Positions 7,711 to 47,396 of a DNA stretch of 63,629 nt are shown here, in pieces (within the stretch, counting starts at the first letter, position 1; each line of letters begins with the position of its first letter). Below the pieces are notes generated by a model, which was not told the DNA's origin, did no database searches, and saw only the letters and a list, made by a program, of their open reading frames with translations. The DNA comes from a virus (taxonomy: Duplodnaviria > Caudoviricetes), in IMG/VR virus record IMGVR_UViG_3300019781_000017, positions 1 to 63,629 of that record; one strand, written 5' to 3'. The translations under genes were made by a program, and so were the position numbers.

Positions 7711-7936
7711 CCGCCAGCGCGACCACCTCTGGAACACCTTGCGCGGTTGCGGGTGCTCCGAGGAGTGGTTGATGCATCATGGGGAATACCTCTGCGAGAA
7801 CATCGCTGCACTGATTCAGCGCCCAGCTCCCGAGGTGCGTGAGGTTGTGCGCCACGTTCACCATAGCAGCCCCGCACCATCTGATTTCGGTTTCGGTATG
7901 GCGGTAGGCATCGCCGTTGGAGGTATGTTCCCATGA
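7697..7936 (+). CDS. hypothetical protein
   Basis: GGAGG RBS; C-terminal hydrophobic tail. Confidence 0.6.
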   Translation: MKLSDRQRDHLWNTLRGCGCSEEWLMHHGEYLCENIAALIQRPAPEVREVVRHVHHSSPAPSDFGFGMAVGIAVGGMFP

Positions 7937-8292
7937 AGTATATCATGCTCGAGACGGAAGAGGGGATGAAGCTCCCCATCATCTTCCCCGACGTCCTGAC
8001 CCATTGCTTCGTCGCGGGTGCCATGCAGCTTGTCATGGACACGCTCGACCCGAAGAAGGACTTGCGCCCCCGCCAGCTCGATGACATGCTGAAGCGGGGC
8101 AGCGCTCCGCCCGTTAGCGCGGGGTTCGTTAACATCGTCGGAGACGTCACTGTCTACGGCGAATCCGAGTCACTGGGCGGAGTGAAGAGCGTTCCCGCGG
8201 ACGCTGCCCGGATCCTGATGGGTGACGCCATCCAGTTCATGCCTGATAGCATGTGCGAACTACTGATGGAGAAGCTACGTGACGGAACATAA
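7933..8292 (+). CDS. hypothetical phage protein
   Basis: MKYIM...PIIFP...VSAGFV...GESESLG; GGAGG RBS. Confidence 0.75.
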   Translation: MKYIMLETEEGMKLPIIFPDVLTHCFVAGAMQLVMDTLDPKKDLRPRQLDDMLKRGSAPPVSAGFVNIVGDVTVYGESESLGGVKSVPADAARILMGDAIQFMPDSMCELLMEKLRDGT

Positions 8293-8521
8293 GAACGACG
8301 AGCGCAACTGGATTGTTGCAGTGCTCACGAACGGCTGGATGAAAGTCGCATTCGCTGAGCAGGCGGAGAACATCGCGCGCCAGAAGGCTGAAGCGATGTC
8401 GCTCGACCCCGTGGGCACGAAGTGCGATCTGGAAGAGCACGACCTGTCGCTGGTCGAAGCGGTGTTCGTCTACGAGCGCAAGGGCACGGTCCGCGCCGAG
8501 AAGATTGCGAAGTGGAGCTGA
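8279..8521 (+). CDS. hypothetical protein
   Basis: coupled ORF. Confidence 0.6.
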   Translation: MTEHKNDERNWIVAVLTNGWMKVAFAEQAENIARQKAEAMSLDPVGTKCDLEEHDLSLVEAVFVYERKGTVRAEKIAKWS

Positions 8522-8522
8522 C

Positions 8523-8831
8523 ATGCAAGCGTGCAATTTCGCCGGTGCCCACGCGGTAGGCAAACCGAAGGACTGGATCCCTGAGCTCGATGGTGAGTGT
8601 GGCACCATCTTCTGCATGGACCAGATGAACGATCAGCTGGGATATAACTTCAAGTATTCCATCTACAAGCCCACCGAGGCTGACCTCGCTGTGCTGAACG
8701 CTGGTGGCGCGCTGCGCCTGGGCATCATGTGTGACGGCCACCCGGTCTTCAACATGGTCTGCCTGGACAAGACCATCTGCGACGAAATCAACCTCACTCC
8801 CATGTGGGACCTTGGAGAACCTGTGAAATGA
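8523..8831 (+). CDS. hypothetical protein
   Basis: GKPKDW...CGTI...KPTEADLAVLNAGG...HP; GGAG RBS. Confidence 0.7.
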   Translation: MQACNFAGAHAVGKPKDWIPELDGECGTIFCMDQMNDQLGYNFKYSIYKPTEADLAVLNAGGALRLGIMCDGHPVFNMVCLDKTICDEINLTPMWDLGEPVK

Positions 8832-9286
8832 GCAAGACCCCGATATTCGACGAGTTCTTCCGCCAGCGTTCCGACGTCGTGGAAGCGAGCCAGACCCCGC
8901 GCACTGTCACCTTCAGTTACGAGGGGTGGAACAAGGCGCAGCTCGAGACGTTGGCGGGCGATAACATCAAATACACCCCGCCGACGTATTGCGGGCTCCC
9001 GCACATGGTCGACCCGAACCAGACCGCGCCCATTGTGGTCACCCACGAATATCCTCACGAGGTGCAAGCGCGCCTCAAGCAACCGTTCCGCAGGCAGAAC
9101 GCCATCACCGTCAAGATTGACGGGATCATGTCCGGCGCACCTGTGGTCGAGATCCTTGCTGCCAACCTCACCGCTGCGCAGCTCTGCGACATTGCGCGTG
9201 CGTGGCTGGACGCCGACTGCCAGAAGTGGGGCAAGTTCGAAACCGATCTCGACAAGGTCATCACCGAGCATGGACGCTTCGACTAA
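8828..9286 (+). CDS. hypothetical protein
   Basis: ATGA overlap; GGAG RBS. Confidence 0.7.
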   Translation: MSKTPIFDEFFRQRSDVVEASQTPRTVTFSYEGWNKAQLETLAGDNIKYTPPTYCGLPHMVDPNQTAPIVVTHEYPHEVQARLKQPFRRQNAITVKIDGIMSGAPVVEILAANLTAAQLCDIARAWLDADCQKWGKFETDLDKVITEHGRFD

Positions 9287-28896: not shown

Positions 28897-31800
28897 ATGG
28901 CAGAAGAACGGATTGACATTGAAGTCACCGACAAGGTTGACGCCAATGCTGCCAAGAAGATTAACCAGATTGCAGACGCTGCGGAACGCGGTGCCAACTA
29001 CGTTGACAAGCTGAAGGCGGCGCTTGCTAACGTCAACACGAGCGGCACCGACCGCCTTGTATCCGCAATGGCGCGCGCCGACAGCGCTGCCGCACGTCTC
29101 CTGAACGCGCAAGTGCGCTTGACGATGTCGCAGGACCAAGGCGCCCTGGCGGCTGCGAAGCTCGCGACCCAAGAGCAGCGCCTGGCGACGGAGACGGCCC
29201 GCACAACGGCGGCACAGCAGCGAGCCGCCGCAGCTACCGCACAGGCGGAGGCAGCGACGCAACGCCTTGCAGCGGCCCAGCAGCGCACCACACAGGCGAC
29301 CGCTGCCGCTGGCACGGGGTTTGCTGCACTGGACCGCTACGTTCAGCAAACAGGGGGCAGCGCTGCTCGGACCCGCGCCAACATGGCGAACCTCGGAGCA
29401 CAGATTTCCGACATCGGGGTCTCGCTCGCGGGCGGGCAGAACCCCTTCCTTGTCTTTATTCAGCAGGGGTCGCAGATCCAATACATCGCCAGCCAGATGG
29501 AAGGCGGGTTCCGCGGACTGCTGGCAGCGGCGAGCGGATGGATTGTGGTCAGCAAGGTTGTCGCCACCACTGCGACGGAGACCGCTGCCGCGAACCTCGC
29601 TCAAGCAACCGCTGCGGAAGTCGCTGCGGCAGCCGAAGCTCAGAAGGCTGCAATCCTGGCGGCCGTTGTTATCGCACAGCAGGCGCTGACCGTTGCAACC
29701 GCCGAGGTGGCCGCTGCTGAATTGCTTCAGGCTACTGCGGCAGCGGAACTCAACCTTGCGACCATCGGTTTGTCGGTCAACCAGACGCTGGCGGCTGCCG
29801 CTGCGCAAGGTGACACCGCTGCACAGAATGCGCTCACCGCTGCGATGGCGCGTCTGAGTGCTGCGCAGGGTCAGGCTACCCTTGCGACCGCGAACGTCGC
29901 AGCCGCTCAGCTTGGACAAGCTCAGGCAGCTACGGCGCTGGCAAGCGCACAGAGCGCGGTCGCGACGTCCACCGCTGCCACAACCCGTGCGCTGTCCCCG
30001 CTGTTCGTCGGCGTTGCATCGCTGGTCGCAATCCTTGGCGGTCTGTATCTTGGGTTCCGCAGCTTCAGCGATGAGATTGCAACGAACTCGAAGCCCAAGC
30101 TGGAAGCGTTTGCGCAGACCCTCGGTCTTACCGATAAGGAGATGCGCAAGCTGGACGGTTCGACCGTGTCCGCCAACGGGAAGCTCAAGGAGCACGATGT
30201 CCTTGTCGTTACGGCTGGGGATAGCTGGATCGGCTTCAAGAACACCGTTGCTGAGGGTATGGCAGGCCTGGTCGAGGGCTGGGGACCGCTTAACGATTAC
30301 TTCAGTGCAGCCTGGAAGGCGACCACGGAATTCCTCTACATGGCGTTCCTCGGCTTCTATGCGGCGGTGCATACGCTTATCGAGCTCATCTACAAGACGG
30401 CGGTCAACGTCTTCAAGCTGCTGGCGAACGCGGTGATGGGCATCGCGAACAGTGTGGTCATGGTGATCCAGGATGTCGTCAACGCGGCAATCGGAGGCAT
30501 CAACCTGCTCGGTGACGGCGCCAACTACGTCCTGGAGAACCTTGGGTTCGACCGCCTTGTGCCCACGCTCGATAGGGTTGCGCTTGGCGTCGACAGCATC
30601 ACGCAGAATATGTTCGAGCTTGAGAGCATGGACATCGGTGAGACCTTCCGTGGGCGGGTGCAGGAAGCGAACAACACAATCCAGGGCTTCGCACAGGCTT
30701 GGGAGGATGCAGCGAACGCGGCTGCCCGTGCGCGCATTGCAGCGCTGGCAGCGTCCATTATTGAGAACCGTAGCCCGGCAGCACAGCGCGCGGGTCGCGT
30801 CGACCGCACGGCGGAGAACCGTGCGCTTGCAATTGGTATCGTCAACCTGAAGCTGGACGATGAACTGGCTCGGATGCGGATGCTCAAGGACGAGCGCGCT
30901 ATCCAGCAGCGCATGGACACCATCGAGCAGGAACTGGCTCGCAAGAAGATCACTCTCAATGACCAGGAGCGCGCAAGCATCCTTGCCAAGGTCACTGCGA
31001 TTGAAGAATACAAGTATGTCCAGCAGGAGATGGACCGCATCCACGAGGAAGCGGTTGGCCCCATGCGGACCTATAACGCATCGATTGCCGCTGCAACACA
31101 ACTCTTGGCTGACCACAACATCACGCAGGAGCAGTTCAGCCAGGAGCAGGTGCGCGCGAACCGTGCGCTTGCGGAAGCCCAGGATCCTTTGTTCCAGATG
31201 AAGGAAGCTCTGGACGCTGCGGCAGCAACGACGAACAAGTATGGCGTCGAGCTGGAGCGTGCGAACTATTACGAATCGATCCGCCAAGCGTTCCTCGCCA
31301 AGAACATTATCTTGTCGCAGCAGTATGTCGCGGGCACGAACGCGGAGGTCGACGCGCTTATGCGCAAGAACGACCAGCTCCGCCAGCAGCAGTTTATCCA
31401 ATCGCAGCTTGGCGCAGTGCTCAACCCCATGCTCGAGCAGCAGATGCAGATCGATGCGCAGGCGTCAGTCTATGCTGAGCTGGAGCGCTTGCGTGCGGAA
31501 GACCTCATCAAGGAGGACACCTATCAGCAAGCTAAGGCTGCACTGTGGGTCAAGTATAACGAGCAGAAGCTGAACGCTAGCGCGGACTTCTTCGGTGCGC
31601 TGGCAAGCGTCACCAAGAAGGGCACGGGGGTCGTTGGCGCTATCAGCAAGGCGGCAGCGGTCGCTGAAGCAACGATCCAGGGCTACCTCGCGGTCCAGAA
31701 GGCGCTTGCGTCAATGCCCCCGCCCTTCAACATGGTGGCAGCGGCAGCGGTTGCTATCAAGACGGGTGCGAACGTGGCAGGCATCCTGTCCACGAACGCG

Positions 31801-40776: not shown

Positions 40777-43002
40777 CTATGCAGCTTCAGCCGGAAGTGC
40801 GCCAATGTCGCGCAGCATCCTAACAGCTTCAGTGATATACCAGTCGTGATCCACGTCTGAAGGCACCTGATTATCGTTGGCGAACACCATCATCGGCTTC
40901 GCACCGTCCGAGCGGGGCACCTTGTTCCCCGACTGCGCATAGACCAGCTCACCGGGGACGTCCTTGGCATAATACCAGCGCACCGTCTTGCCAACGAACT
41001 CGGTCTCACCGGGAACGGCAAGCTGCTCCTTCGCAATCTCGTAAGCCTTATCGGTGTGGCGCGCATAGCGGTCCGACTCACCCTCCCTGATCCAAGCATC
41101 CTGGGCAAACTCAATGAAGCCAGCCGCTCGAATAAGTTCTTCCTTGCTTGCGTGCTCAGGGACCGTGCTGCTCCACACCTTCACCGCGCCGCCCTTGACG
41201 CTGCGCACCGTAACGAACTTGCGAATGTCCGTCTCGTTGCGGATGGTGTGGTCAATGGGGGTGCCCTTGATCAGCAGCGCTTCAACCGCTTCCACGCAGA
41301 CGGTTGTCGTCGGGTTCTTGTGGAGACGCATGGCAAGGTTCTTCGGGTCGTTCCAGGGGTTGGCGTATGCACCCTTCGACTTAATGCCGTCGGGGATCTC
41401 CAGCCACTTGTTCGTTGCCTTGTCGAACTTCTGCTTCACTGCAATGTAGTTGTTCACGTCGCGCGAGTAGAGCGACAGGTAGCGGGTTTCCTCCGTCTTG
41501 TATTGCGTGCGCTGCTCCCACTCAGCAACAACCGCGTCAAGGATGTGAACCCCGTTGCGTGGGCACTTGATAACAATGCCGTCGGTGTTGGCGCTGACCA
41601 CATGGATGCCCGCCATTTCCAGCATTTCGATCAGTAGCAGGATGCTCAGCTGACCCGTCAGCGTTGTCTGCGTCAGGAAGTTCGGTGCGTAGAGGATTGA
41701 ATACTTGCTACCGAACTTGCCGAACGACCCGTTGATAACAATCTTGAGCGAGTCCGCGACGGGCTTGTTGCCAGCCGCCTTCGCTGCCAAGCGTCGGTCA
41801 ACGATGGTGCGATACACCTGCAAGAACACTGGGCCCAAGTGCTCAGGATACATGCCTTGGTTCAGGATGATGCGGGGGTAGAAGGACTCAACGTCCTTGT
41901 CGATCATAATGTAGTTCTCGTCGGTATGGTGCGCCACCGTGCTTTCGGTGCTGTGCAGCCCGCCGATCCCCATCGTGTAGGTCGTGCCGTTGATGTCCAG
42001 CTTGAGGTCTTTAATCTCCTCCGGCATTGCAATGGAGCCGGTGTAGTCAACGACGAACTTGGCACGCGCCACCACACTGAGCGCCCACTGCATCAGCGGG
42101 GACTTAAATGCCATCCAAGGTGGCACTTGATAACGGAACGTCGTCCCGACCTCAATCTCAGGGCGCTTGGGACGGATCCCCGTGCGCCTTTGCAGCTCAG
42201 CGGACATAACCGCTTCGGCGATCTGCGCGTCGGACTTGGACCGCAAGTCAACCTTGTATTCGTTCGACAGCGTATAGCGCAACTCGATCTGCTCTTTGAG
42301 CGTCTCGCGGAGGTGCGCGGTGTTGTGCGTGTCGTTGACGCAATACCAGCGCACGATCGCAATCTGGTTCATTGACAGGATGGTTGACGGGTGGAACGGA
42401 AGGTCCTGCATCTTGCGGGAGTGCATCCGTCCCGCATAACCCTTCAGCGATGCGAACAGGGGTGCCACCTCGATAAGATCGATATGGTCGCACTTCACCG
42501 ACTTCGCTTTGTTCTTGCGTCGCACGTCGCTGCCACGCTGCTCTTCCTGAATGATCTGGTCCGACGCTTGCTTCAGCTTCAGCAGGGACAGACCGTGGAT
42601 CGCCATCTCGCACATGGGCAAATCGTAATTGATGCCATTGAACGTGACGCAGGTATAATTCTCCAGCATCCATTGGAGCTTGCGGCGGTCGAGCGGGGGC
42701 CCGCCCTCCCATTCCTCAACCAGTGCAATCTTGCCCGTCACGAGGTTCGTGAAGATGACAAGGAAGTAGTTCCCATAACATTCGACGTCGGTGATCATTT
42801 CCTGCCGCTGCTGGCGTGCAACGGCAAGATCTTCGAGCGTCATAAACTGGACGGGGAACTGTAGCGCCTCAGCGAGGCCTGGGAGGTAGCTGGGATCGAG
42901 CCACGTGGGCTTCGGTGGAACCCGCTTCATCTGCTCCTTCTTTGGAGCCTTCGGCGGCGGGGTGTCATCCCAAAAGAATCCGATTGAGTCGTTGCGTGCC
43001 AT
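40777..43002 (-). CDS. DNA polymerase, family B
   Basis: exonuclease motifs TDVE, FNGINYD, YCVND; polymerase motifs DVESFYP, KIVINGSFGK, NTDG. Confidence 0.88.
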   Translation of the reverse strand: MARNDSIGFFWDDTPPPKAPKKEQMKRVPPKPTWLDPSYLPGLAEALQFPVQFMTLEDLAVARQQRQEMITDVECYGNYFLVIFTNLVTGKIALVEEWEGGPPLDRRKLQWMLENYTCVTFNGINYDLPMCEMAIHGLSLLKLKQASDQIIQEEQRGSDVRRKNKAKSVKCDHIDLIEVAPLFASLKGYAGRMHSRKMQDLPFHPSTILSMNQIAIVRWYCVNDTHNTAHLRETLKEQIELRYTLSNEYKVDLRSKSDAQIAEAVMSAELQRRTGIRPKRPEIEVGTTFRYQVPPWMAFKSPLMQWALSVVARAKFVVDYTGSIAMPEEIKDLKLDINGTTYTMGIGGLHSTESTVAHHTDENYIMIDKDVESFYPRIILNQGMYPEHLGPVFLQVYRTIVDRRLAAKAAGNKPVADSLKIVINGSFGKFGSKYSILYAPNFLTQTTLTGQLSILLLIEMLEMAGIHVVSANTDGIVIKCPRNGVHILDAVVAEWEQRTQYKTEETRYLSLYSRDVNNYIAVKQKFDKATNKWLEIPDGIKSKGAYANPWNDPKNLAMRLHKNPTTTVCVEAVEALLIKGTPIDHTIRNETDIRKFVTVRSVKGGAVKVWSSTVPEHASKEELIRAAGFIEFAQDAWIREGESDRYARHTDKAYEIAKEQLAVPGETEFVGKTVRWYYAKDVPGELVYAQSGNKVPRSDGAKPMMVFANDNQVPSDVDHDWYITEAVRMLRDIGALPAEAA

Positions 43003-43054: not shown

Positions 43055-43189
43055 TTATCGGTTGTTCGGTCGGCGCTTCACAGTCTTGGGCTTCTCCTTC
43101 ATCTTGCCATTGCAGGTTGGGCAACCCTTGTGGTCATACAGATACATATTCCCGCAAGCGGTGCATTTGACTTTGCGCCGGCGGACCAT
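43055..43189 (-). CDS. 44-aa basic Zn-ribbon protein, not in ORF track
   Basis: MVRRRKVKCTACG...GCPTCNG...; TGATG coupling to the clamp-like gene. Confidence 0.55.
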   Translation of the reverse strand: MVRRRKVKCTACGNMYLYDHKGCPTCNGKMKEKPKTVKRRPNNR

Positions 43190-44181
43190 CAGCCGTTCAC
43201 CGAGAACTGCTGACCCTCGAAGTGCGACCGCATTCCGATGATCGCTCCGCGCAACCGCTGCCCGAAGAACAGCGCGGGCTCGGGGTATAGGGTAAAGTCC
43301 GCGTGAGTCACCACACCATCGAGCAGGCTCAGCATCGCGATGTTATAGCAGCCCTGGAACTCCAACCCGTCGACCTCGACGCTGCCACCCTGCTCCTCTT
43401 CGGTATGGGTTGTCAGCAGCCCGTGGTTGATGTAGATGCGGCTGCTCCCGTCCGCGAGGCGCTGTAGCTTGGTGATGGCGGGGAACAGTTCGTCCGGTAG
43501 CCTGACAGGCTCGTTCGGTCGGTTAAGGATCTTGGTGATCATTTCGAAGGGCCACTCAACCCCGAGCAACTGGCTGCGGATCCAGCACTCGTTCTCGTAG
43601 TGGAATGTGATACTGTTGCCCGCCAGCTGGGCGTGCGTCGGGGGTTCGTTGACCCGAAGCATTTCCTTGATGCAAGCCTTGGGCACGTTGATCTGGCGGG
43701 GGAACGCTGCGCCCAGCCAATACTCAACGACGCAAGTGTTGTTCGTTGCAAAGGCGGATTGCCCGTTCAGAAGCACCCCGTTCGTCCATGGGCGTGACGC
43801 ATCGTTACCGATAAAGGGATAGAGCACCTTCACCGCTTCGAGCAGTGCGACCCCGTCGAACGCAAGCGGCTCACCCTCAGGGCTGGGATGGAACCCCGTG
43901 TCAATCGTGTTCTCTACGAACGCACGGAACTTGCCACTCTGCACGCGCAGCTTGCCGCCGGGTGTCATGGACAGTGTGATGACTTCCTCACACTGGCTTA
44001 TCGCTTTGACAAGCTGGTCCGCTTTGGGACAGCAGTTGATGTCAAAGGGGAGCGGGCTGCTAATGGCGAGCGTTCCGTTATAGCTGCGGACGTGTCCCTG
44101 CTCGATCTGGAAGTGCGTCATCGCTGGCAGCAGATCCTTCTTGCCCACCGCGCCCTGGACGAACTTCAATTCCTTTAGCAT
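43189..44181 (-). CDS. DNA polymerase III beta (sliding clamp)-like protein
   Basis: ASRPWTNGVLL...AFATN; 330 aa; next to the polymerase. Confidence 0.7.
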   Translation of the reverse strand: MLKELKFVQGAVGKKDLLPAMTHFQIEQGHVRSYNGTLAISSPLPFDINCCPKADQLVKAISQCEEVITLSMTPGGKLRVQSGKFRAFVENTIDTGFHPSPEGEPLAFDGVALLEAVKVLYPFIGNDASRPWTNGVLLNGQSAFATNNTCVVEYWLGAAFPRQINVPKACIKEMLRVNEPPTHAQLAGNSITFHYENECWIRSQLLGVEWPFEMITKILNRPNEPVRLPDELFPAITKLQRLADGSSRIYINHGLLTTHTEEEQGGSVEVDGLEFQGCYNIAMLSLLDGVVTHADFTLYPEPALFFGQRLRGAIIGMRSHFEGQQFSVNG

Positions 44182-44384
44182 TCATGCGCTCCATACTTGT
44201 CCACCAGCTTCTTGATCACCGGGGACTTCCAGGTTTTGCCGTATCGCTCTATCACGATTGCAATTTGCATTCTACGGTGAAAGTGGCCGTGTCGCAAGTG
44301 CGCAGTTTTGCAAACGTAGAGAAGCGTATTGAGCATGATGCTCCGCTTGAGCGAGTGCGGCTTGGGGTGGCGCTTAACGTCCAT
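44175..44384 (-). CDS. hypothetical basic protein
   Basis: TGATG coupling to dpdA; GGAG RBS. Confidence 0.5.
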   Translation of the reverse strand: MDVKRHPKPHSLKRSIMLNTLLYVCKTAHLRHGHFHRRMQIAIVIERYGKTWKSPVIKKLVDKYGAHEC

Positions 44385-45343
44385 CAGAACAGCTCCGCCG
44401 AGCGAGGTTCGTAGACCCCTGTTTCCGATGCGTTCATTAGCGCGTTGACGACACCGAACGCCCACAGGTTGTAGGCAGCACGGGACTCGTAGATCTGCGA
44501 TAGACGTTCGTAGGTGAACCCGTTGTCCTCGAGCGTCTTGAACACGAAGTCAACTTCCACCTGCGACAGCGTTGTCGCGTGCTGCCCGGCGTCGTGCCTT
44601 GAGGGTGACTTCTCCGATACAGACATCGGCATAGCAGGGTTCTTGCGGCTAATGCCAGGCATGATAATGGAACCGAATGCAGCGCTCTGAATCCAGGAGG
44701 ACGAGTCGCAGCTATACCACGGATAGGCCTCCATGATCGGAACAGCGGTGATGCCAAAGCCATGCACCTTACAGCGCGGGCGCCCCGAACCGTCAGTGAG
44801 GAACTTGTCCCACATCCGGTCGAGCCAGACCATAAGCTGCTGAGTGCTGGATCCCACCATGCCGCCCAGCGTGATGTAATCGTAGTTCTGAACATAGTGT
44901 TCGAGGTAGCGCTCATCCTCCCCAGCGTGGAAACAGGGGAGGGGGCGCGCGCTGATGCCATGCTCGATCTTTAGGCGCGCTTCCATCTCAAGCTGGTTGC
45001 GATAGGTCTGGTGCGGGTCACCGATGCCGTCAAGCACTGACGCCATAAGGTTGCCGTCCTCAATGCGCAGGATGTCCATGTTGCGTGCGATATAGGAACA
45101 GTATTCCCGCACCGACAACTCGACCCCGAGGGTGTAAGCGGAGAACGCACCGCTGTCCAGGAAGATGGAAGCATTGAGCCGCCGCATGTGGTCAACATAC
45201 GATTGCTTGCCGACATAGTGCCACGACTCGAGTATGTGAGGGAGACCATTAACGATCTCCCTCTCCCGGTCGTTCAGTTTTACATAGCGGTTCATCCCCT
45301 CCATATAGGAGTTCGTATAGACCGCGGCCATATAGATGTGCAT
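44384..45343 (-). CDS. dpdA: DpdA-like DNA-guanine transglycosylase (TGT fold)
   Basis: FLDSGAFSA, LGGMV, VHGFG, SCDSSSW; clustered with que genes. Confidence 0.82.
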   Translation of the reverse strand: MHIYMAAVYTNSYMEGMNRYVKLNDREREIVNGLPHILESWHYVGKQSYVDHMRRLNASIFLDSGAFSAYTLGVELSVREYCSYIARNMDILRIEDGNLMASVLDGIGDPHQTYRNQLEMEARLKIEHGISARPLPCFHAGEDERYLEHYVQNYDYITLGGMVGSSTQQLMVWLDRMWDKFLTDGSGRPRCKVHGFGITAVPIMEAYPWYSCDSSSWIQSAAFGSIIMPGISRKNPAMPMSVSEKSPSRHDAGQHATTLSQVEVDFVFKTLEDNGFTYERLSQIYESRAAYNLWAFGVVNALMNASETGVYEPRSAELF

Positions 45344-45361: not shown

Positions 45362-46249
45362 TTAGCGCGCGAGCGCAAGGAACTCCGCACGGACAGCGGC
45401 GTCGGTCTTGAAGATGCCCCGGAGCGCGCTGGTGACCGTTTCTGACCCTTGTTTCTTGATGCCCCGCGACTCCATGCAGAGGTGGCGAGCGGTGATGACC
45501 ACACCGCATCCCAGCGCGCCAAGGTGCTCCTGGATAGCGTCAGCAACCTGACAGCCCAGGCGCTCCTGCACCTGCAAACGCTTCGCGTAGATGTCGAGCA
45601 AGCGTGACAGCTTCGACAGCCCCACGATCTTCTTGTTCGGCAGATACGCAATGGTGGCAGTGCCGAAGAACGGCGCCATGTGGTGCTCGCAGTGCGTATA
45701 GAAGGGGATGTCCTTCACGACGACCATCTCGTCCACACCCTCGGCACCGTCCTCGAACGTCTTGAGAACGTCCTCGGGGTTCTGGTCGTAACCCGCGCAC
45801 CATTCCTTCCAAGCCTTGGCGACCCGCTTGGGGGTTTCCTCCAGTCCGCCGCGGCTGGGATCCTCGCCGATGTATTGCAGCAGGCGGACGATATGGTCTT
45901 CGATGCCAGCGGACCCGTTCCCTTCCCACGGCCACACGACCCAGGCGTCACCATGCTCCCAGCTACGCTTGTCGATAAGCGCCTCGAAGTAGTGGTCGCC
46001 GAACCGCTCCATCGTTTTGCCGGTGTCGATAAGGTCGTCGACAATGACGTCAGCTTTGGTCCAGTCGTCTTCCACCTTGAACCGCTCGTCGCTGTCAAGT
46101 GCGAACAACGCCAGGCGCGCTGCAATGCCCGCGGTCGGAACCGCATAGACCTTGATCGAGTCGTAGCTGGCCAGCTTGGTGAGGATGCGGTTCTGCATGT
46201 CCCCAGCAAGGTCCAGGACCGAGAGTGTATCGTAAACCTGTTCGGCCAT
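45362..46249 (-). CDS. folE: GTP cyclohydrolase I with N-terminal phosphoribosyltransferase-like domain
   Basis: GEDPSRGGLEETPKRV, CEHH, GLSKL.R, LQVQERL, HLCMESRG; N-terminal VIVDDLIDTGKT and WVVWPWE. Confidence 0.9.
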   Translation of the reverse strand: MAEQVYDTLSVLDLAGDMQNRILTKLASYDSIKVYAVPTAGIAARLALFALDSDERFKVEDDWTKADVIVDDLIDTGKTMERFGDHYFEALIDKRSWEHGDAWVVWPWEGNGSAGIEDHIVRLLQYIGEDPSRGGLEETPKRVAKAWKEWCAGYDQNPEDVLKTFEDGAEGVDEMVVVKDIPFYTHCEHHMAPFFGTATIAYLPNKKIVGLSKLSRLLDIYAKRLQVQERLGCQVADAIQEHLGALGCGVVITARHLCMESRGIKKQGSETVTSALRGIFKTDAAVRAEFLALAR

Positions 46250-46250
46250 A

Positions 46251-46709
46251 TCAGTTCCCCAAGTAGCTTGCGGCGTTGCCCGCGTGTTCCCGGCACTCGA
46301 CTTCCGCAACGCGGACGCCCCGTGCAATCTCTTCCGGGGTGAGGGTTTCCTTCGCCCACCCGTGGACCATGTGCGCGAACGATTCGCACCCGACCTTCGG
46401 CACGACAACGATGTCACCGAGCAGCGGTTGGCCGTTGAAGTAAAGCGCTTCCTGGAGGTGCGCGAGGTAGGGGTCGTCCTGCGCGAGCAGCATCTTGTGA
46501 TCGAACGTGTCGCACAGGCGTTGCTTCAGGGGCTTCAGCGAACCGAAGTCCTTGACCCAGCCGTTGCCATCAAGCGTGTCACACTCGAACACAATCTTGA
46601 AGCCCAGGGCATAACCGTGGATGAAGCGGCAGTGTGACGTCGCTTGCGGTTGGCGGAAGGTAGCGGACAGGCCAAGCTCATGACCGTAGGTTTTGGTGAC
46701 GCGGTGCAT
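46251..46709 (-). CDS. queD: 6-carboxytetrahydropterin synthase
   Basis: CRFIHGY, WVKDFGSLK, FDHK, E.REH..N.A. Confidence 0.85.
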   Translation of the reverse strand: MHRVTKTYGHELGLSATFRQPQATSHCRFIHGYALGFKIVFECDTLDGNGWVKDFGSLKPLKQRLCDTFDHKMLLAQDDPYLAHLQEALYFNGQPLLGDIVVVPKVGCESFAHMVHGWAKETLTPEEIARGVRVAEVECREHAGNAASYLGN

Positions 46710-46710
46710 T

Positions 46711-47007
46711 TCAGTCCTCCGAGTGCGTGACCACATGCCGGCCAAACGCAAGCGTCACCGTAACATAGTCGCAGGTAGTGAATTCGCGGAACAGGTCCGC
46801 AGCGATGTCTTCCATAAACTTCTTCTTGAACTGCGCAATCTTGCGAATGCGCTTGCGGATGCCGTAGAGCTCATGCACCGGCGCAGAGTCGTCGAGAAGG
46901 TCGTCTCGGAAAGCCACCTCGACATAGATCAGGTCGGGGAGATGGTTCACCGGACAGAAGGTGATGATAGGCAGCCAGTGCCTTACTTGAGTGTGACGAA
47001 CAGCCAT
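46711..47007 (-). CDS. QueF-like (QueF-L) single T-fold protein
   Basis: CPVNHLPD catalytic motif; FMEDIAADL; 98 aa; lacks E(S/L)KSxKLY; GGAG RBS. Confidence 0.7.
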   Translation of the reverse strand: MAVRHTQVRHWLPIITFCPVNHLPDLIYVEVAFRDDLLDDSAPVHELYGIRKRIRKIAQFKKKFMEDIAADLFREFTTCDYVTVTLAFGRHVVTHSED

Positions 47008-47396
47008 GCGAGACTCCACAAGAGGGTTAGAGCGAGACCCTGCCACCAGGATCGGTTGAACCATTCCCATTCAGTTCCCATGCTGTAGCGGTGTTCACTG
47101 AAGGGGTAAAGGAGCGGCGGTGCCCAGCGCTTGCCGTGCGTGGGCAAGTCTAGGAGGATATGCGACAGCAGCGCCAGCAGGGGCACCACAGTGGCGAACA
47201 GCGCTAGCGCCAGCAACCCTGCACCCCCTAGCACGAGCGCGCTGTGCGCCGCGTTGTAGGCGGCTGTAGGGTGCGTCAACCGCCGCCACGTTACAAGCGC
47301 AAGGTCGGGGGCAACACCGCACGCCGCGCCAAGGACAGGTTGCCCGAACGCGGCGCCGACGGATGCACCTGCCACAGCGTGTGACAGGATGTCCAT
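46983..47396 (-). CDS. YdjM-like membrane metal-dependent hydrolase
   Basis: MDILSH, APDL, AHS, SHILLD.PTH, PLLYPF; hydrophobic. Confidence 0.75.
   Translation of the reverse strand: MDILSHAVAGASVGAAFGQPVLGAACGVAPDLALVTWRRLTHPTAAYNAAHSALVLGGAGLLALALFATVVPLLALLSHILLDLPTHGKRWAPPLLYPFSEHRYSMGTEWEWFNRSWWQGLALTLLWSLAWLFVTLK

Follow-up and report, generated by a model that had tools for sequence, protein, structure and literature searches.

Why does a phage that encodes the DNA guanine transglycosylase DpdA carry GTP cyclohydrolase I (FolE) with an additional domain at its N terminus? The question is raised by a caudoviricete sequence of 63,629 nucleotides (IMG/VR record IMGVR_UViG_3300019781_000017, analyzed at its full length and called the window here). 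In the window, a single open frame of 295 amino acids plus stop (45362..46249, on the minus strand like every feature located below) encodes an N-terminal domain (residues 1 to 110; 45920..46249) followed by a FolE core (residues 116 to 295; 45365..45904). A first-pass annotation made from the sequence alone had claimed that this N-terminal domain was a Gpt-like phosphoribosyltransferase (PRTase) fused to FolE, and profile matching, predicted fold and residue mapping all bear the claim out. By profile and model, residues 1 to 110 were confirmed as a predicted type I PRTase fold closest to Gpt (xanthine-guanine phosphoribosyltransferase, XGPRT) of Escherichia coli and Yersinia. The PRTase-FolE fusion is real and widespread, its N-terminal domain is unannotated, and a role in guanine recycling is plausible.

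Taken as a single sequence, the domain gave weak evidence of its identity. The Pfam PRTase model PF00156 scored it at 18.3 to 19.8 bits, below the cut-off of 26.3, and matched only the stretch VIVDDLIDTGKT (residues 68 to 79; 46013..46048), the predicted loop for phosphoribosyl pyrophosphate (PRPP) or ribose 5-phosphate. This stretch contains two acidic residues followed by D-[TS]-G-x-T, the signature of type I PRTases, and the same Pfam model matched 15 of 42 family members at E ≤ 0.01. The domain belonged to no family in PHROGs and to none in NCBIfam at E ≤ 0.001, the Gpt model NF006613 included. A phmmer search of the PDB with the single sequence returned matches at chance level (the unrelated DndE at E 0.15, HGPRTs at E of about 1).

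In contrast, a profile made from an alignment of 42 N-terminal domains cut from IMG/VR loci retrieved six XGPRT/Gpt sequences from the PDB, with E values from 6.5e-10 to 2.2e-8. The match consists of two collinear pieces, profile positions 2-58 with Gpt 4-59 and positions 61-109 with Gpt 84-141. From the same alignment, AlphaFold2 predicted a PRTase fold, on which the first-pass annotation had staked its claim, with a predicted local distance difference test score (pLDDT) of 93.9 and a predicted template modeling score (pTM) of 0.86. Foldseek ranked E. coli XGPRT entries first for this model (E 3.1e-5, TMq 0.66-0.74). The best VIA-align match was Yersinia XGPRT (6kp5; Z 10.7, root mean square deviation 2.6, 106 of 112 residues), followed by a Gpt-like Neisseria protein crystallized with ppGpp (5vog, Z 10.1); the PRTase-fold regulator PyrR scored Z 8.4, and all 10 chains at Z ≥ 8 were PRTase-fold proteins. 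The Gpt-like identity is far beyond chance; the single-sequence evidence is weak, and the profile and fold evidence is decisive. The model of the full-length fusion has a pTM of 0.70, and its inter-domain geometry is uncertain.

Residues were mapped by aligning the domain with the product of gpt as recorded in the E. coli K-12 genome. The three motifs reported in the first-pass annotation, VYAVPTAG (residues 34 to 41), VIVDDLIDTGKT and WVVWPWE (residues 103 to 109; 45923..45943, the counterpart of Gpt W134-D140), are all present. D71 and D72 correspond to Gpt D88 and D89, and D75-T76-G77-K78-T79 to Gpt D92-T93-G94-G95-T96. K94 (45968..45970) corresponds to Gpt K115, W103 to W134, and P107-W108-E109 to P138-W139-D140. 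Loop I, V-P-T-A-G (residues 37 to 41; 46127..46141), takes the place of Gpt S36-R37-G38-G39. It had been described as a degenerate form of RGG, which is what the alignment of T39-A40-G41 with Gpt R37-G38-G39 and the family consensus PRGG indicate. The flexible loop had been read as shortened. Length has indeed been lost there, but as a whole deletion, since the loop II hairpin of Gpt (residues 59-80, 22 amino acids) has no counterpart in the window. Gpt 117-125 (nine residues of the hood) and the tail 144-152 also have none.

The domain therefore lacks the equivalog match to NF006613, the loop I RGG, the loop II hairpin and the intact hood of Gpt, and for these reasons we file it as a Gpt-derived truncated PRTase-fold domain and not as Gpt. 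It is best explained as a minimized descendant of a Gpt/XGPRT-type 6-oxopurine PRTase, joined to the N-terminal helix of FolE. The FolE core itself is canonical. Residues 116 to 294 match PF01227 at E 2.2e-71, the protein scores 225.5 bits against TIGR00063 (cut-off 181.6) and 242 bits against NF006825 (cut-off 174), phrog_2197 matches as well, and the zinc/catalytic motif CEHH is present. Full-length homologs of the fusion protein are 294 to 300 amino acids long.

Thirteen columns are invariant in the 42 N-terminal domains: P38, G41, D71, D72, I74, D75, G77, T79, K94, W103, P107, W108 and E109. D71, D72, D75, G77 and T79 are also invariant among 91 sequences, and K94 is invariant in three alignments of the family. 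K94 and W103 have kept their alignment with Gpt K115 and W134 while the nine hood residues between them were deleted; we take the former to be the equivalent of the 6-oxo-binding lysine and the latter of the stacking tryptophan. More generally, we assume from XGPRT and HGPRT that the invariant positions hold the ribose hydroxyls, the 5'-phosphate, O6 and N7 of the purine, and the stacked base; in the DTG motif, the Asp is presumably the residue that contacts N7 in 6-oxopurine PRTases. The best explanation is that the domain keeps a predicted pocket for a purine base and ribose 5-phosphate.

Loop I is more variable. Across 121 clusters of homologs it reads PRGG in 89, PTGG in 9, PTAG in 8, PRNG in 6 and PRAG in 2; five other variants occur once each, and two clusters were unmatched. 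The window belongs to the PT[AG]G clade, in which the loop I arginine is replaced (17 of 121 clusters). The arginine is invariant in 27 stand-alone mini forms of the domain. The ratio of nonsynonymous to synonymous substitution rates (dN/dS) of the N-terminal domain is 0.17 against Sphingomonas phage vB_StuS_MMDA13 and 0.15 against locus L002, compared with 0.24 for the FolE part against MMDA13. Purifying selection acts on the N-terminal domain, also in the PT[AG]G clade.

The fusion extends well beyond the window. A word-indexed search with residues 1 to 115 gave 131 proteins at E ≤ 1e-3 among 309 candidates, and all 120 that were listed carry the FolE Pfam domain. A search for relatives with a single N-terminal sequence recovered one locus only, so that alignment queries were needed. 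Among 50,697 phage records, 391 match the window protein, mostly through FolE, and 34 carry the N-terminal domain. These 34 comprise Nipunavirus-type Pseudomonas phages (NP1, PaMx25, JG012, JG054), Stenotrophomonas, Xanthomonas and Variovorax phages, Vibrio phages of the VpKK5 type, and MMDA13, the closest named relative, whose gp31 is 78.3% identical over 100% of the length and whose gene order is shared. The product is annotated as GTP cyclohydrolase, with six records lacking an annotation. In PaMx25 (JQ067084.3 / NC_041953.1, about 31340-31760), the N-terminal domain matches under both a "hypothetical protein" and a folE feature, which suggests that the database record splits or overlaps the fusion.

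A first IMG/VR scan yielded 80 loci among the matches listed, with the N-terminal domain in 76 and the FolE core in all 80. In the flanks of these listed loci, tblastn with the window proteins at 1e-5 detected DpdA at 66, QueE at 72, QueC at 42 and QueD at 36, counts that are lower bounds because the flanks span at most 6 kb and many contigs are short. A survey of the fusion across dpdA phages had been proposed by the first-pass annotation, and a DpdA homolog does stand beside most of these loci. In a second scan, 72 of the 74 new loci among the matches listed are FolE fusions; one of the remaining two runs off its contig and the other (L124) is split. A motif regular expression missed 25 of the 74; they were recovered through their match coordinates, and all 25 are FolE fusions.

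On a larger scale, an exhaustive profile search of public proteins, covering 1.84 billion cluster representatives, gave 4259 matches at E ≤ 1e-3, of which 1140 reached E ≤ 1e-10. A crude regular-expression sort of 149 of the 150 representatives listed (P0122-P0270, with P0017 left aside) separated 33 FolE fusions, 14 truncated fusions and 102 others, from which we draw no frequency because "other" is a mixture in which fragments and divergent FolE fusions, such as P0139, P0184 and P0195, stand beside genuine stand-alone proteins. A scan of prokaryotic genomes, one per species, confirmed at least 15 stretches, several of them on short contigs and one on a 54.9-kb contig of a Limnohabitans bin with the phage gene order of the window. 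On at least nine chromosomes of Dehalococcoidia metagenome-assembled genomes (L091, L092 and L094-L100; open reading frames [ORFs] around 7900-8850), the mini-PRTase is fused to a divergent FolE-like domain with CENH, CERH or CEKH in place of CEHH. No Que or DpdA genes were found near these nine fusions by tblastn with the window proteins at 1e-3, and the L094 neighborhood, the one scanned with Pfam, contains housekeeping genes. The Dehalococcoidia fusion may be a domesticated or repurposed copy.

Several variant architectures were seen among the representatives. P0134 (583 amino acids) is a PRTase-FolE fusion whose FolE core, by Pfam, is interrupted by an intein that carries an HNH endonuclease; P0191, at 582 amino acids, is of about the same length, the Pfam scan having covered P0134. 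P0139, P0184, P0195 and L172 (about 340 amino acids) have an insert of 50 to 60 amino acids between the PRTase and FolE domains, and the first three have CAHH or CSHH rather than CEHH; the function of this subgroup may differ. P0142 (264 amino acids, one cluster) joins a mini-PRTase to a DpdA-like C-terminal half in which HGFG...SVDS resembles the window DpdA by eye. It could be a real fusion or reflect a natural deletion between neighboring genes, and we did not use it as evidence.

Gpt-like PRTases also occur unfused in phages. In Flavobacterium phage immuto_2-6A, a "phosphoribosyl transferase" of 131 amino acids (gp211), without loop II and with the hood kept, lies directly upstream of FolE (gp210) inside a cluster of QueD, QueE, DpdA and QueF. 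In locus L124 (4875-6017), QueD is followed by a mini-PRTase that ends in a helical tail and then, directly, by a complete, separate FolE of 182 amino acids. Stand-alone mini-PRTases (L124, P0144, P0159, P0173, P0190 and P0232) have a helical tail of 30 to 45 amino acids that resembles the first helix of FolE and may be a docking element on FolE.

In Brevundimonas phage MaInes, FolE is directly followed by a Gpt-like PRTase of 161 amino acids (MAINES_00780) that keeps loop II and the hood, scores 52.3 bits against PF00156, above the cut-off, and reaches 94 bits against NF006613, for which the cut-off is 138. Its neighbors are a deoxynucleoside monophosphate (dNMP) kinase and ribonucleotide reductase, and at a distance of 9 kb the genome carries QueC, QueD and QueE. 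The window DpdA had no match in the MaInes genome, a result that is uninformative without a positive control; a hypothetical gene of 266 amino acids beside QueE is a DpdA candidate only. Cellulophaga phage phiST has a loop-bearing PRTase of 142 amino acids (CGPG_00045) beside a dNMP-kinase-like gene and ribonucleotide reductase. Fifteen Campylobacter phage records, CP220 included, have a related PRTase, with a radical-SAM gene two genes downstream of it in CP220.

CP220, phiST and immuto_2-6A are described as genomes fully modified by DpdA3 (Cui 2023), and all three of these phages named as fully modified encode a Gpt-like PRTase. Like the window domain, the PRTases of MaInes, phiST, CP220 and immuto_2-6A come from phages with deazaguanine pathway genes; deazaguanine DNA has been shown for the last three, whereas MaInes is known from its genes alone. 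Most of these four PRTases share the ending W-[IVL]-[VI]-[FY]-P-W-[ED] with the window domain. Unlike it, the proteins of MaInes and phiST still have both the loop II hairpin and the hood, and none of the four is fused to FolE.

In the window, the fusion gene is part of a compact minus-strand cluster with the order DNA polymerase (40777-43002), sliding-clamp-like protein (43189-44181), DpdA, fusion, QueD, QueF-like ORF, YdjM-like membrane ORF, QueC and QueE. DpdA, directly downstream of the fusion (44384..45343), matches phrog_887 at E 2.3e-89, and its syntenic counterpart in MMDA13, gp30, is annotated DpdA. QueD, directly upstream (46251..46709), matches PF01242 at E 3.8e-17. The ATG of the fusion, at 46249, lies one base past the QueD stop codon, with a GGGGAA stretch just upstream. 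The QueF-like ORF, at its longest reading (46711-47070), overlaps the YdjM-like ORF (46983-47396). It matched no family in PHROGs, NCBIfam or Pfam, where the best E, 0.057, was for an unrelated one. Read from the ATG at 47007, it has 98 amino acids, the same length as MMDA13 gp33, which the authors of the MMDA13 paper call a QueF-like archaeosine synthase. With the YdjM-like ORF, the deazaguanine cluster includes a putative membrane protein. The MMDA13 authors predict archaeosine-modified DNA and name gp31 simply FolE (MMDA13 paper).

What could a Gpt-derived module contribute to such a pathway? The first-pass annotation had put forward guanine recycling to feed FolE, a deazaguanine nucleotide for pre-replicative incorporation, and a PRPP- or purine-sensing regulatory domain; the first fits the context best, the second is disfavored, and the third is a serious rival. 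Transglycosylases of the DpdA type put a deazaguanine base into DNA in place of guanine, and each of these bases is built from one GTP via FolE, QueD, QueE and QueC (Hutinet 2019, Cui 2023). Each modified position therefore costs one GTP and frees one guanine, and in a fully modified genome the freed guanine amounts to the whole G content. E. coli XGPRT, an enzyme of the Gpt type, turns free guanine and PRPP into GMP (Anderson 2019). We tentatively predict that the module serves guanine salvage that feeds FolE. DpdA would swap guanine out of phage DNA for a deazaguanine base, the PRTase module would convert the freed guanine and PRPP to GMP, host kinases would raise GMP to GTP, and the fused FolE would return that GTP to preQ0 synthesis. 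Removal of free guanine, the product of the exchange, would also pull the DpdA reaction forward. The PRTase might first have been recruited next to FolE and later fused to it. In this scheme, we infer the substrate, catalysis without loop II and the physiological loop.

Salvage is favored by the graded series of full-length, loop-less and fused forms, by the adjacency to FolE and by the fully modified phages. Further points for it are the XGPRT-like fold, the invariant residues that map onto Gpt, the low dN/dS, the DpdA homologs in the flanks of most of the listed loci, and the dNMP kinase and ribonucleotide reductase genes beside the PRTase in phiST and MaInes. The PRTase-FolE linkage recurs in three forms: fused, split but adjacent, and full-length beside FolE. 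Guanine flux is largest in the fully modified phages, and all three of them have a Gpt-like PRTase. The widespread loop I arginine (89 of 121 fused clusters and the 27 stand-alone forms) fits a pyrophosphate site that has been kept across most of the family.

A series of observations weighs against salvage. The loop II hairpin is wholly absent from all fused forms and from the immuto_2-6A protein, whereas in HPRT this loop lies over the active site while catalysis is under way (Anderson 2019). Gpt R69 falls in the segment deleted from the window domain, the hood is nine residues shorter, and a linker to FolE replaces the C-terminal tail of Gpt. In the window clade, loop I reads PTAG or PTGG, its arginine and glycine having been replaced. 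Three phosphorylation steps separate GMP from the substrate of FolE, so the fusion gives no direct channeling. No deazaguanine genes were detected near the nine Dehalococcoidia fusions, from which it would seem that the domain is tied to FolE rather than DpdA. Most phage records that encode FolE do without the domain (34 carry it, against 391 that match FolE). Finally, Gpt-like genes occur also in PA5oct-like jumbo phages and in one Synechococcus phage. We keep the salvage assignment tentative because loop II is absent, the clade has lost its arginine, there is no channeling, and the Dehalococcoidia pairing occurs without a DpdA detected nearby.

Nearly as likely as salvage is that the domain is a non-catalytic sensor, in which the Gpt pocket was kept just for binding a purine ligand, for example guanine, GMP, PRPP or (p)ppGpp. 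Such a sensor might act by way of the shared N-terminal helix, tuning the activity or assembly of FolE so that GTP withdrawal matches purine supply or DpdA activity. The deletion of loop II and the trimming of the hood fit a domain that binds but does not catalyze, and the invariant residues are those for base and 5'-phosphate contacts. In the window clade, the pyrophosphate-binding arginine of loop I was lost while dN/dS stayed at 0.15-0.17. Structural matches to the ppGpp-crystallized Neisseria protein and to PyrR point the same way, as does the finding that HPRT trimmed of loop II still bound pppGpp (Anderson 2019). Dehalococcoidia chromosomes have kept the fusion with no deazaguanine genes detected around it, and the tail on stand-alone forms that resembles the first FolE helix hints at docking on FolE. 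However, most of the family conserves the pyrophosphate-site arginine, and relatives that bear the loop and have the same genomic role resemble ordinary enzymes, as the PF00156 and NF006613 scores of the MaInes protein illustrate. We also know of no allosteric PRTase-fold regulator of FolE, though no search was aimed at one, and the uncertain inter-domain geometry of the full-length model counts against a sensor as well.

Either salvage or sensing could take place within the FolE oligomer, an idea that we regard as doubtful. The mini-PRTase would work only there, either with its active site completed in trans or as a gauge of free guanine that switches FolE on when DpdA excises the base; stand-alone copies would dock through their helical tail. 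If true, base excision and precursor synthesis would be physically coupled in one machine that recycles guanine into deazaguanine.

It is unlikely that the domain is a deazapurine PRTase joining preQ0, 7-carboxy-7-deazaguanine (CDG) or another 7-deazaguanine base to PRPP, whether the resulting nucleotide were incorporated before or during replication or met another fate. The module does lie inside a deazaguanine gene cluster in the window, and a PRTase is also found in phages with complete replacement. Yet DpdA is adjacent in the window and was detected at 66 of the 80 related loci among the matches listed, and the closest relatives of the domain are guanine/xanthine enzymes. The DTG-motif Asp, the presumed N7-contacting residue of 6-oxopurine PRTases, is invariant, and a 7-deaza base has no N7. 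No dedicated nucleotide kinase was found in the deazaguanine cluster of the window. Tubercidin clusters, in which the core genes for CDG accompany a PF00156 PRTase with CDG as its substrate, offer a precedent (bioRxiv 10.64898/2026.04.15.718813), but all known deazaguanine DNA modifications have been argued to be post-replicative and made by DpdA (Cui 2023).

A structural appendage or decaying remnant with no ligand role, such as a solubility or oligomerization tag, is very improbable: most phage FolE proteins work without the domain, and the FolE of phage 9g complements E. coli (Hutinet 2019), with no Escherichia phage among the 34 domain-carrying records, but a dN/dS of 0.15-0.17, 13 invariant columns over 42 diverse sequences that fall on known Gpt ligand-contact positions, and 1140 representative clusters at E ≤ 1e-10 all speak against it.

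Full-text literature searches turned up no account of a PRTase fused to FolE, nor of a part played by a PRTase in the deazaguanine modification of phages. Neither Hutinet 2019 nor Cui 2023, nor the papers on phage iggy (PMC10484667) and MMDA13, use the term "phosphoribosyl" in their main text; the supplementary tables of Hutinet 2019 and Cui 2023 may list such genes. The sole paper found by full-text search to contain both "DpdA" and "phosphoribosyltransferase" concerns actinomycete gene clusters. GenBank already labels stand-alone genes "phosphoribosyl transferase," and the annotation of the fusion in databases is just "GTP cyclohydrolase." Deazaguanine DNA modification lets phages escape restriction enzymes and Cas9. 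The Gpt-derived module would supply a mass-balance step that has been missing from the deazaguanine pathway, or else serve as one of its control points. To our knowledge, the domain would be, at about 110 amino acids, the smallest PRTase-fold unit known, and it is a useful test case for whether loop II is needed for catalysis.

Of known systems, Gpt/XGPRT (PDB 1a95, 1nul, 4jls and 6kp5) is the best match to the window domain by both profile and fold. The two have in common the N-terminal helix, the position of loop I, the acidic pair, the DTGxT 5'-phosphate loop, the lysine and the W-x-x-x-P-W-D/E ending. They differ in length (110 amino acids in the window, 152 in Gpt, of which 59-80, 117-125 and 144-152 are missing from the window domain), in loop I (TAG in the window, RGG in Gpt), and in the fusion to FolE. 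The window domain also falls below the Pfam cut-off and matches no NCBIfam Gpt model. PyrR uses the PRTase fold for ligand sensing, as proposed here for the sensor, and PurR is another non-catalytic or dual-role regulator with this fold. What these two regulate is binding to RNA or DNA, not a fused enzyme, and both are more distant from the window domain than Gpt is. The PRTase of tubercidin-type clusters is, like the window domain, encoded with FolE-, QueD- and QueE-type genes (bioRxiv 10.64898/2026.04.15.718813). As described there, it is set apart by its place in actinomycete secondary metabolism without DpdA and by its 7-deazapurine substrate. A further parallel is Gat-QueC of phage 9g, in which an accessory domain is likewise fused to a core enzyme of the preQ0 pathway in a deazaguanine phage. 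Gat-QueC has another fold, acts at another step and, as reported, changes the product to G+.

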